Below are positions 6,092 through 14,196 of a stretch of 53,253 nucleotides of DNA, piece by piece; the stretch's first letter is position 1, and each line of letters begins with the position of its first letter. Below the pieces are notes generated by a model that was not told where the DNA came from, made no database searches, and worked only from the letters and a program-made list of their open reading frames with translations. The stretch comes from Pseudomonas phage Luminis: the sequence record PQ632788.1. One strand, written 5' to 3'. A program made the translations under genes and the position numbers.

Positions 6092-6967
6092 ATGAGCAGA
6101 AACTACCCCCGGCTGGACATCGAGACGTTTGGCCGACACCTGATCACCACCGGCGATCTGGACCCCATCTACATCGCCCTGGTCCGGGCGGAGTCCGCGG
6201 GCGACTTCTCCGTGCCGCAGCTCTGCCGCTGGCTCCTCGCATATTGGTGCTACTACCACGCCGGTGTCGCCTCCTTCCTCAGCGAGAAGGAGGGCGAGGA
6301 GTTCTGGCACTGGATGATGGTCGCGGCCCGCAACGAGGAGGAGACGCCCGCCGGGGGTCGCTGGCCTCGTGGGCATGAGCGCCGCCACTACCGGGCGAAG
6401 ATCGCCGTTGACTCCGTCACCGCCCTCCAGGCCCGCTACGGCGACCGCCCGGAGAACGTCGCCCTGTACGTGGGAGCCCGGGCGACGGAGGATGAGCGCC
6501 TGCCCTTCAAGACCGTCTCCGCCCGCGCCCAGGAGCACAACGGCTTCGGTCCGTGGATCGGCTTCAAGATCGCGGACATGATGGACCGGGTGATGGAGGT
6601 CCCGGTGGACTTCGACAACGCCGCCGTGTTCATGTTCAAGGACCCGGAGAAGGCCGCGATGATGCTGTGGGAGCAGCGCGAGGCTCACAAGTACCCGGAG
6701 AACGCGAAGCCCAAGCGCGAGGCGATCCTGTCCGGGGTCGCAGACTACCTGATTGGGCGGTTCGCTGACCTCGCCGCTCCGCCACTGGGCGACCGCCCCG
6801 TGAACATCCAGGAGGTGGAGACGGTCCTGTGTAAGTGGAAGTCCCACATGAATGGCCACTACCCGCTCTGGAACGACATCCGGGAAATCAACGGCGGGCT
6901 CGAACCGTGGGCGGGTCGCTGCTCCGCCGCACGGGCCTTCCTCAACCACATGCCCAAGGAGCAGTGA
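6092..6967 (+). CDS. Hypothetical protein, paralog A of the 10317-11306 protein. Candidate DNA base-modification transferase (aGPT-pyrophosphorylase-like role).
   Basis: Shares motif [17 protein letters not shown] with IGWGPFMAYEVVTDLRH of the paralog. Sits in a cluster with a kinase, a PLP enzyme and a radical SAM enzyme. Confidence 0.6.
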
Positions 6968-6968
6968 G

Positions 6969-7805
6969 ATGATCGTCAACAACACCCCGGTCGAAACCTA
7001 TGAGCTCAACGGGGTCCCGATCCTCGTGAAGCGGGAGGACCTGTGCGCCCCGCTCCCGGGTCCGTCCTTCAGCAAGATTCGCGGAGTTGTCGCCCATATC
7101 AAGAACCGGCCTGAGACCACCATCGGCTGTCTGGACACGTACCACTCGAAGGCGGGCTGGGCGGTCGCCTACGTCTGCCAGCAGCTCGGGAAACAGGCCG
7201 TGGACTACTGGCCCCGCTTCAAGCGCGACGGGGCCGCGGACGCCCCGCGCGTCCAACAGCAGCACGCTCGCCAGCTCGGGGCGGACCTCGTGGACATCCC
7301 GGCGGGCCGCTCCGCGATCCTGTACCATACGGCCAAGAAGCACCTGCGGGAGAACTACCACGACAGCTACCTGATGCCGAACGCCCTGAAGCTCCCGGAG
7401 TCGATCACGGAGAACGCCGCGGAGGCCGTCCGCACCGCCCCGCACCTCCCGGACTCCGGGACCCTGGTCATCAGTATCAGCTCGGGGACGGTCGCCGCCG
7501 GGGTGCTCAAGGGCTTCGAGGAGGCGGGCCTGCTCCGCAACTACAACGTCATCCTCCACATGGGATACTCGCGGAGCCAGGACGCCACCCGGGAGTACAT
7601 CGAGAAGGCCGCGGGCCTGACCTTGGGCGACAGGATCAAGTTCATTGACGAGGGCTACGGGTACGCGGACGCGGCCCGGGACGCCTCCGCCCCGTTCCCC
7701 TGCAACCCGTTCTATGATCTGAAGGCTTGGAAGTGGCTGAGTGACCCGCTCAACCTGGCTTCCGTCCATCCACGCCCCATCGTGTTCTGGAACATCGGGT
7801 CATGA
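6969..7805 (+). CDS. PLP-dependent enzyme, fold-type II (ACC deaminase / D-cysteine desulfhydrase / Trp-synthase-beta superfamily)
   Basis: N-terminal ILVKREDLCAPLPGPSFSKIRG matches the PALP family lysine region. ATG 6969 overlaps the upstream stop (TGAGATG). Confidence 0.65.
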   Translation: MIVNNTPVETYELNGVPILVKREDLCAPLPGPSFSKIRGVVAHIKNRPETTIGCLDTYHSKAGWAVAYVCQQLGKQAVDYWPRFKRDGAADAPRVQQQHARQLGADLVDIPAGRSAILYHTAKKHLRENYHDSYLMPNALKLPESITENAAEAVRTAPHLPDSGTLVISISSGTVAAGVLKGFEEAGLLRNYNVILHMGYSRSQDATREYIEKAAGLTLGDRIKFIDEGYGYADAARDASAPFPCNPFYDLKAWKWLSDPLNLASVHPRPIVFWNIGS

Positions 7806-8182
7806 CGGACCGGCTCGCCTACTTCAACGACCGTTATCAGGAGGACCCGGAGACGGGGTGCTGGGTTTGGACCGGCTCTCGGGTCAATGGCCTGTACGGT
7901 TGCGCCAACATCGACTACAAGCAGACGTTGGCGCACCGGCTATCCTTCGAGCTGTTCAACGGCCCGATCCCGGACGGCGACAACGTCTGTCATCGCTGTG
8001 ACCGACCGTTGTGCGTCAATCCCAAGCATCTGTTCCTCGGGTCCCAGAAGGACAACTTGGAGGACATGACGCGGAAGGGTCGCCGCGCGGTGGGGCAGTT
8101 CGCCGGTCGCCGGCACTCGGAGGAGACGAAGGCCAAGATGTCCGCCGCCCGGAAGCGGTGGTGGGCGAGTCGGGCCAATTAA
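7802..8182 (+). CDS. HNH homing endonuclease
   Basis: HNH core AHRLSFELFNG...VCHRCDRPLCVNPKHLFLGSQKDN. Basic C-terminal tail. Inserted between metabolic genes. Confidence 0.8.
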   Translation: MTDRLAYFNDRYQEDPETGCWVWTGSRVNGLYGCANIDYKQTLAHRLSFELFNGPIPDGDNVCHRCDRPLCVNPKHLFLGSQKDNLEDMTRKGRRAVGQFAGRRHSEETKAKMSAARKRWWASRAN

Positions 8183-8187
8183 CGCCG

Positions 8188-12991: not shown

Positions 12992-13003
12992 GGAGACGGA
13001 ACA

Positions 13004-13639
13004 ATGGGAAGCCTGATGAGCAAGATTCATGACGAGGAGCGCGAGGCGGAGGAGCTGAACCGCCGCGCCGCCCGCCCGCTCCTGACCCGGATCGCCGCGA
13101 CCCGGGAGGCCGGGACGGTCCGCCGGTGCCACATCGTCCCGCACCACGGTCAGTACAACATCGCCCAGCACAGCTACGGGGCCGTGAGCCTCCTCCTGCT
13201 GCTCCACCCGCACCCGTCGCTGAACCTGATCAAGGCGGTCCAGTGGCACGACTGCGCGGAGCGTTGGTTGGGCGACATTCCGGCCCCGGCGAAGTGGACC
13301 CACTCCGAACTCGGGAAGGTGTATGAGGAGGCGGAACGCCGCGTGCTGGCGACCCTGGGCCTGCTCCCGGGCCTTCTCCCTGACGAGGAGGACTGGTTGA
13401 AGGCCGTGGACACCCTCGAACTGTGGCTATGGTGCCGGGAGGAAGAAGCCCTGGGCAACGAAGCGGTCACGGCCATGCGGAGGGCATGCGAGGCGGTGAC
13501 GGAGAAGCGGGGCCTGGAGGGTAGCCTGCCCGAACCCGTCCGCGCCTTCTACGTGGCAGCGAAGCACCAGCCGCATCGCCGTCTCTCGGACTTCTTCGAG
13601 GAGGTGGTGCGCGATGGACTTGGAGAAGCTGCGACGTGA
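13004..13639 (+). CDS. HD-domain phosphohydrolase
   Basis: H..HD-type motifs CHIVPHHGQYNIAQHSYG and QWHDCAERWLGD. Confidence 0.7.
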   Translation: MGSLMSKIHDEEREAEELNRRAARPLLTRIAATREAGTVRRCHIVPHHGQYNIAQHSYGAVSLLLLLHPHPSLNLIKAVQWHDCAERWLGDIPAPAKWTHSELGKVYEEAERRVLATLGLLPGLLPDEEDWLKAVDTLELWLWCREEEALGNEAVTAMRRACEAVTEKRGLEGSLPEPVRAFYVAAKHQPHRRLSDFFEEVVRDGLGEAAT

Positions 13640-13841
13640 TTGGGCGGAGGACCCGCAGCTGAAGTTCTACGCCTTCGACACGGTGGAAGAACTCGCTGCG
13701 CACCTCCGCAAGGTCCATACAGATATGATGAACGGGGAGCACGGGTGTTTTGGGTACTTGTACCGCCAGCAGACACTCCGGCTCCGGGAACTGATGAAGG
13801 AGTTACAAGATGAGCGTGAACGAAAAGCAAGTGGGCGGTGA
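13614..13841 (+). CDS. Hypothetical small protein
   Basis: GAGGAGG RBS. 26 nt overlap with the HD gene end. Moderately high GC3. Confidence 0.45.
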   Translation: MDLEKLRRDWAEDPQLKFYAFDTVEELAAHLRKVHTDMMNGEHGCFGYLYRQQTLRLRELMKELQDERERKASGR

Positions 13842-14196
13842 GCACTACCGCTCGCCCGTCCAACACTGGGACTATGTGGAGCTGAACGGCCTCCGCTACA
13901 CCGAAGGCTGCGCGACCAAGTACGCGACCCGCAACCGCAAGAAGCACGAGGACCCGCGCCAGGACCTTGAGAAGGCGATCCACTACGTGGAGAAGGTCCA
14001 GGACCTGTACCGCAACGGGGTCCTGCTGCCCCGCTCCGCCCCCGTGGTCATTACCCCGGACGCCTTCGCCGCCGCGAACGGGCTGACGGAGGACGAAGCC
14101 GAAGTGGTCCGCATCCTCACCTTCTGGGAGTCCGACCCGGAGCTGACCGCGGCCCTGAACCTCCTCCGCCGGATGATTGCGGAGGTCGGAGCCTGA
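13810..14196 (+). CDS. DUF3310-like phage protein
   Basis: Pattern GGEHY...QHWDY...KYATRNRKKHEDPRQDLEKAIHY resembles DUF3310. Confidence 0.55.
   Translation: MSVNEKQVGGEHYRSPVQHWDYVELNGLRYTEGCATKYATRNRKKHEDPRQDLEKAIHYVEKVQDLYRNGVLLPRSAPVVITPDAFAAANGLTEDEAEVVRILTFWESDPELTAALNLLRRMIAEVGA

Follow-up and report, generated by a model that had tools for sequence, protein, structure and literature searches.

Pseudomonas phage Luminis (sequence record PQ632788.1; its 53,253 nucleotides are the stretch of DNA analysed, here called the window) carries between positions 6,092 and 14,196 a set of contiguous genes that very probably constitutes a pathway for modifying thymidine in the phage DNA. A preliminary description, made from the sequence without database searches, had read the cluster as one in which 5-hydroxymethyl-2'-deoxyuridine (5-hmdU) in DNA is phosphorylated, an amino acid is transferred onto it, and radical S-adenosylmethionine (SAM) and pyridoxal phosphate (PLP) enzymes tailor the adduct. 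All of the open reading frames (ORFs) named in that description are present on the plus strand with the starts predicted for them, each intact (a start, a stop and no internal stops), and the cluster does lie directly upstream of a gene for a family A DNA polymerase (Table). The description had missed genes for an HNH homing endonuclease and an Nmad5 protein, as well as a small ORF (13614-13841) that gave no match to Pfam or to any other family.

Comparison with the phage M6 gave the cluster its most specific interpretation. The order of genes is that of M6 gp51 to gp62, in the same place directly upstream of the polymerase gene, where a cassette has been described for M6-like phages (PMC9476957), and the kinase, transferase, radical SAM, PLP, ThyA-like, HD and polymerase proteins are 97-99% identical to their M6 counterparts. 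Lee et al. (2021 NAR; PMC8989533) have reconstituted the activities of M6 gp51 to gp54 in vitro. In that work gp54 acts as a kinase on 5-hmdU within DNA; gp51 puts glycine onto the phosphorylated base (5-PmdU) to give N-alpha-glycinylthymidine, by a route proposed to pass through a Cys adduct at C6 and through an exocyclic methylene, and loses activity upon Cys to Ala or Glu to Ala substitution; gp53, which depends on SAM and a reductant, isomerises this product to the C-alpha-linked form; and gp52 decarboxylates that isomer only, generating 5-(2-aminoethyl)-2'-deoxyuridine (5-NedU). The latter (a nucleoside of 271 u) takes the place of about 30% of T in M6 virion DNA, which resists enzymes such as NcoI, and has been predicted for YuA, MP1412, PAE1, LKO4 and AN14 (Lee et al. 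2018 PNAS; PMC5889632). With a high degree of confidence, therefore, we assign the Luminis cluster to the M6-type pathway of the genus Yuavirus, predicted to replace part of the thymidine with 5-NedU. The hypermodification reading was thus right, each of its steps having an orthologous M6 gene, but the system is one already characterised biochemically, and published, in a phage that is ~97% identical. The bulky thymidine replacement that had been anticipated holds in part: a modified base is predicted, but the side chain of 5-NedU is small and only the above fraction of T is replaced in M6.

Table. Genes of the predicted 5-NedU cluster of Luminis and selected neighbours.
Gene product	Position	Strand	M6 orthologue (protein identity)	Family match
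Protein with weak uracil-DNA glycosylase superfamily match	4519-5025	+	gp48 (100%)	18.7 bits, cut-off 24.3
Glycine:DNA transferase (clade-2 aGPT-Pplase)	6092-6967	+	gp51 (97.6%)	PF18724 ADDT (formerly aGPT-Pplase2), 8e-47
PLP-dependent decarboxylase (PALP family)	6969-7805	+	gp52 (97.1%)	PF00291, 5.7e-10, 39.5 bits, cut-off 35
HNH homing endonuclease	7802-8182	+		HNH_3, 2.1e-10, and NUMOD3; PHROG endonuclease, 6e-34
SPL-like radical SAM glycinyl-thymine isomerase	8245-9687	+	gp53 (99.4%)	
Kinase of 5-hmdU in DNA (5-HMUDK)	9742-10305	+	gp54 (98.9%)	PF18748, 5e-18, 65.7 bits, cut-off 27
Clade-1 aGPT-Pplase	10317-11306	+	gp55 (86.0%)	PF18723 HMUDK_hel (formerly aGPT-Pplase1), 2e-57
Nmad5 protein	11362-11922	+	gp56 (57.0%; most diverged gene of the cluster)	PF18757, 2e-52
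ThyA-family enzyme, predicted dUMP hydroxymethylase	11936-12991	+	gp58 (97.7%)	PF00303 Thymidylat_synt, 1.4e-17
HD-domain YfbR-like 5'-deoxynucleotidase	13004-13639	+	gp59 (99.5%)	PF12917, 4e-8; PDB 2paq (YfbR), 3.9e-5
Small ORF	13614-13841	+	gp60 (100%)	
DUF3310-like protein	13810-14196	+	gp61 (98.4%)	DUF3310, 21.8 bits, below cut-off 24; PHROG 5839, 1e-62
Family A DNA polymerase	14196-16190	+	gp62 (99.1%)	PF00476 DNA_pol_A, 1.9e-46
dCMP deaminase	16471-16959	+	gp65 (annotated putative dCMP deaminase)	PF00383, 2e-16
GIY-YIG homing endonuclease	17663-18166	+		Pfam, 5.7e-10

The four core tailoring enzymes differ from those of M6 by few substitutions, none of which falls at a known functional residue. 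The P-loop kinase contains a Walker A motif (GCNGSGKT, from residue 8) and passes the 5-HMUDK model, whereas its scores against the Thymidylate_kin and dNK models (20.7 and 18.2 bits, respectively) are both below the cut-off of 27. The enzyme is thus a 5-HMUDK and not an ordinary dNMP kinase; the latter would, according to the preliminary description, have spoken against its own reading. Profile searches likewise placed the transferase and the clade-1 protein in the two aGPT-Pplase families (PF18724 and PF18723). The transferase keeps both residues known to be essential in M6 gp51, Glu243 and Cys247, within the motif ETVLC (residues 243-247), and matches a near-identical structure in the PDB (25qc_A, E 5e-202) as well as that of gp46 from phage PaMx11 (8z2m, 7e-92).

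The remaining two tailoring enzymes are equally well preserved at the positions that matter. The radical SAM protein contains the motif CTVGCAFC (CX3CX2C, residues 125-132) with C125, C129 and C132 kept; although it reached only 22.1 bits (1.9e-4) with the Pfam Radical_SAM model, under the cut-off of 29.5, it matches, along its whole length, the PHROG 'DNA repair photolyase', and it also matches the PA0069 and Rv2578c family radical SAM models of NCBIfam. Together with the near-identity to M6 gp53, the motif and the photolyase match bear out its earlier description as a radical SAM enzyme resembling spore photoproduct lyase (SPL). A C-terminal group of cysteines (residues 398, 421, 426, 429 and 439) could, from the sequence, supply ligands to a second cluster. 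In the PLP enzyme the predicted Schiff-base residue Lys36 is kept, in SFSK, and this residue and the above-threshold match to the PALP family agree with the fold-type II assignment made before. When the gp55-like, PLP, kinase and radical SAM proteins were searched by sequence against the PDB, no solved relative was found for any of them.

The identity of the tailoring enzymes also bears on which product is to be expected. In PaMx11, as in the window, a 5-HMUDK is paired with a clade-2 Pplase (gp46) that makes N-alpha-glycinylthymidine, and the common kinase and glycine transferase, together with the match to gp46, would be compatible with the PaMx11 product, 5-acetylaminomethyl-dU (5-AcNmdU), being formed in place of 5-NedU. 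However, PaMx11 employs an FAD-dependent lyase and an acetyltransferase in place of the radical SAM and PLP enzymes of the window (PMC8989533, PMC5889632). The genes of the window between positions 6967 and 9742 are PALP, HNH and radical SAM; neither an FAD gene nor an acetyltransferase gene occurs within 6092-14196. Contradicted in this way by the gene content, a PaMx11-type product is exceedingly improbable.

For the ThyA-family enzyme the preliminary description had proposed that the canonical active site is lacking. Membership in the family and an altered motif (PCN-LQAI-FQI) stand, but the nucleophilic Cys and core residues are retained. Specifically, LPCNLQAIFQI aligns to APCH--AFFQF of the E. 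coli enzyme, with the Cys and the FQ pair kept, as are the positions that align with E. coli R166, D169 and N177, leaving a His to Asn change and two inserted residues as the only active-site changes. The best PDB match is MilA, a CMP hydroxymethylase (2.9e-17), whose Cys aligns with the catalytic Cys152 of the Luminis protein. Moreover, the protein scores under every NCBIfam ThyA equivalog cut-off (best 79.9 bits versus 174.55), as fits a hydroxymethylase. On the basis of this failure and of its orthology to M6 gp58, we predict that the enzyme is a dUMP hydroxymethylase.

These results leave next to no room for the view that the cluster serves ordinary nucleotide metabolism without hypermodification, with a dNMP kinase, a thymidylate synthase that makes dTMP, and unrelated accessory genes. 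Such a view could draw on the kinase's weak, sub-threshold matches to the Thymidylate_kin and dNK models, and on the many GenBank records in which the genes are called 'thymidylate synthase', 'threonine dehydratase', 'DNA repair photolyase' or 'terminase small subunit'. Nevertheless, it is the 5-HMUDK model that the kinase satisfies, the ThyA-like protein is closest to a hydroxymethylase, and the orthologues of the tailoring enzymes have demonstrated DNA-modifying activities (PMC8989533).

Taken as an M6-type pathway, the cluster would operate in two stages. Prior to replication, in steps predicted from homology, the dCMP deaminase (whose true start may be a few codons further downstream) would supply dUMP, the ThyA-like enzyme would convert it to 5-hmdUMP by hydroxymethylation, the HD nucleotidase would probably trim competing deoxynucleotides, and the phage family A polymerase would incorporate 5-hmdU from 5-hmdUTP. 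The nucleotidase had previously been described as an HD phosphohydrolase, in keeping with its match to the YfbR-like HD family. Following replication, the P-loop kinase would turn 5-hmdU in DNA into 5-PmdU; Cys247 of the transferase would then attack C6, with the phosphate expelled to leave an exocyclic methylene, and addition of the glycine amine would give N-alpha-glycinylthymidine; the radical SAM enzyme would isomerise this adduct to its C-alpha-linked form; and the PLP enzyme would decarboxylate the latter to 5-NedU. These four post-replicative steps are expected in Luminis by orthology, being transferred from M6 enzymes that are 97-99% identical and whose activities were shown in vitro. 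By analogy, 5-NedU is expected to shield the phage DNA against many type II restriction enzymes. Also part of the conserved cassette are the genes for the clade-1 Pplase, Nmad5 and the gp60-like and DUF3310-like proteins; for the last of these, the ORF that had been described as a DUF3310 protein is present, but its Pfam support is weak and under the cut-off.

The logic of the predicted pathway is shared with other phages that hypermodify thymidine. In Salmonella phage ViI, Delftia phage PhiW-14 and Bacillus phage SP10 a dUMP hydroxymethylase likewise leads to 5-hmdU in DNA; a DNA kinase acts on this base, and an amine or hydroxyl nucleophile is subsequently transferred in a Pplase2-type reaction, yielding 5-NeOmdU, putrescinyl-T and glutamyl-T, respectively. 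However, the donor substrates, linkages and tailoring in these phages are unlike those of the window, and their genes are scattered or fused, as in SP10 gp186, which joins the kinase to a Pplase domain.

Differences between Luminis and M6 within the cluster include the HNH gene (380 bp), a clean insertion that separates the PLP gene from the radical SAM gene. PSP2 has the same insertion (gp14, 125 of 127 amino acids), M6 and PAC6 do not, and the endonuclease is a passenger, not an enzyme of the pathway. In PAE1, BILI, Bella and Jack an HNH gene is found elsewhere, within the gp55-gp56 stretch. Missing from the window, relative to M6, is a 108-bp segment with the mini-ORF gp57 (37 amino acids); the spacing between the Nmad5 and ThyA-like genes (11922-11936) is 13 nt, as in PSP2. 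In the PLP enzyme, 8 of the 11 positions at residues 259-269 are substituted with respect to M6 (DPLNLASVHPR against NPTNLETILDG). A link between this C-terminal patch and the HNH insertion was considered and rejected: the patch occurs in both PSP2 and PAC6, the latter of which has no HNH gene, and so represents an allele rather than an effect of the insertion.

The only fast-diverging genes in the cluster are those encoding the clade-1 Pplase and Nmad5. Whereas the flanking genes specify proteins 97-100% identical to those of M6, the identities for these two are 86.0% and 57.0%, and their ratios of nonsynonymous to synonymous divergence (dN/dS) from M6 are 0.62 and 0.85, compared with 0.05-0.31 for neighbouring genes. 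Divergence is concentrated at residues 91-120 and 160-185 of the gp55-like protein and at residues 31-125 of Nmad5. The allele in the window is of the MP1412 type (97.7% nucleotide identity), whereas most Yuaviruses are of the M6 type (~83%). The two genes (10317-11922) are an allelic cassette that has diverged from the M6 type.

The clade-1 Pplase and the glycine transferase had been described as paralogs of unknown fold. The two are indeed related, but only remotely, and the fold is a solved one that resembles helix-hairpin-helix (HhH) DNA glycosylases; the fold of the clade-1 protein is similar to the Pplase2 crystal structure as well as to these glycosylases. In BLASTP the similarity between the two proteins was not significant (E 1.7), nor was that between their families in profile-profile comparison with hhalign (E 0.13, probability 0.45%), for which the alignments were shallow (Neff ~2) and in which the GxGP and E-x2-LC motifs alone were lined up. 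The clade-1 protein contains an invariant GxGP hairpin and an E-x2-L-C motif resembling the glycine transferase's catalytic site. The model of Nmad5 combines a small sheet with a helical hairpin, and comparison of this model with structural neighbours yielded none that was informative.

How 5-hmdU becomes thymidine in M6 was stated by the authors who discovered 5-NedU to be not known (PMC5889632). Because the clade-1 Pplase keeps the Pplase2-like Cys/Glu motif, a role in thymidine restoration or in site choice is conceivable, and we tentatively raise the idea, which we consider rather unlikely, that the clade-1 Pplase and Nmad5 perform the step from 5-hmdU or 5-PmdU to thymidine, or else choose which T positions are modified. 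Alternative gp55/Nmad5 alleles possibly circulate because host defence senses them, by analogy with Dhillonvirus phages, in which a missense (point) mutation in nmad5 permits escape from the Tmn defence (PMC11846954).

Both the inserted gene and the diverged cassette raise the question of whether the same enzyme families might give an end product, or an extent of modification, unlike that of M6, with N-alpha- or C-alpha-glycinylthymidine accumulating, for example, if the HNH insertion altered expression of the radical SAM gene or if the divergent gp55/Nmad5 cassette changed the outcome. What favours this possibility is that the HNH gene separates the radical SAM gene from the PLP gene, and that the cassette contrasts with its neighbours in identity to M6. 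We nonetheless think it improbable, as each of the four tailoring enzymes is intact, keeps its catalytic residues and is near-identical to its M6 counterpart, PSP2 is viable with the same HNH insertion, MP1412 has the same gp55/Nmad5 allele and is predicted to carry 5-NedU (PMC5889632), and gp55 is dispensable for N-alpha-glycinylthymidine formation in vitro (PMC8989533). Several points do weigh against our assignment of an M6-type, 5-NedU-forming pathway to Luminis. The HNH gene has no counterpart in M6, albeit with the precedent of PSP2; the strongly dissimilar gp55/Nmad5 alleles could affect the extent or pattern of modification; 5-NedU in Luminis DNA is predicted by orthology, the nucleoside having been shown only for M6; and the hydroxymethylase, deaminase and HD nucleotidase steps are predicted from homology only.

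The placement of the genome is consistent with that of the cluster. Luminis is a Yuavirus-type Pseudomonas aeruginosa siphophage with 95-98% nucleotide identity to some 50 Yuavirus genomes, among them PSP2, LKO4, MP1412, YuA and M6, and the first and last 25 kb of the window, searched separately, likewise had their best matches to Yuavirus genomes at 95-98%. The 8.1-kb region 6092-14196 is matched by 76 phage records, in 61 of which at least 80% of the region is covered; nearly all of these 61 belong to the genus Yuavirus (PSP2, LKO4, MP1412, YuA, PAE1, AN14, SN1 and M6), again with 95-98% identity. PSP2 covers the entire region at 96.9% identity and shares the HNH insertion, whereas the gp55/Nmad5 allele is that of MP1412. 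The possibility that the window is a genome already deposited was rejected, as the closest database records are 95-98% identical and none is identical. Luminis is, as judged by these comparisons, one more mosaic member of the genus Yuavirus.

Labels in GenBank are misleading in many Yuavirus records, where the 5-hmdU DNA kinase appears as 'terminase small subunit', the decarboxylase as 'threonine dehydratase' and the isomerase as 'DNA repair photolyase', and PHROG names carry these labels onward. Outside the cluster, a GIY-YIG homing endonuclease gene lies between a gp67-like gene and the primase gene, at a site where M6 has a 12-nt gap only. The orthologue of M6 gp48 has a weak, sub-threshold match to the uracil-DNA glycosylase superfamily, a curious one for a phage expected to replicate with 5-hmdU. 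No tRNA genes were found in the window.

The Luminis cluster adds one further genome to a well-described family. Three predictions follow for Luminis DNA: 5-NedU should be present in it, it should be refractory to a large number of type II restriction enzymes, and nanopore sequencing should show anomalous signals at T. These would be of use to anyone who sequences or clones the phage or uses it in therapy. The allelic divergence of gp55 and Nmad5 offers a modest lead on the fate of unmodified 5-hmdU, on the fraction of thymidine that is modified and on the roles of the two proteins, which are the same questions that M6 poses.

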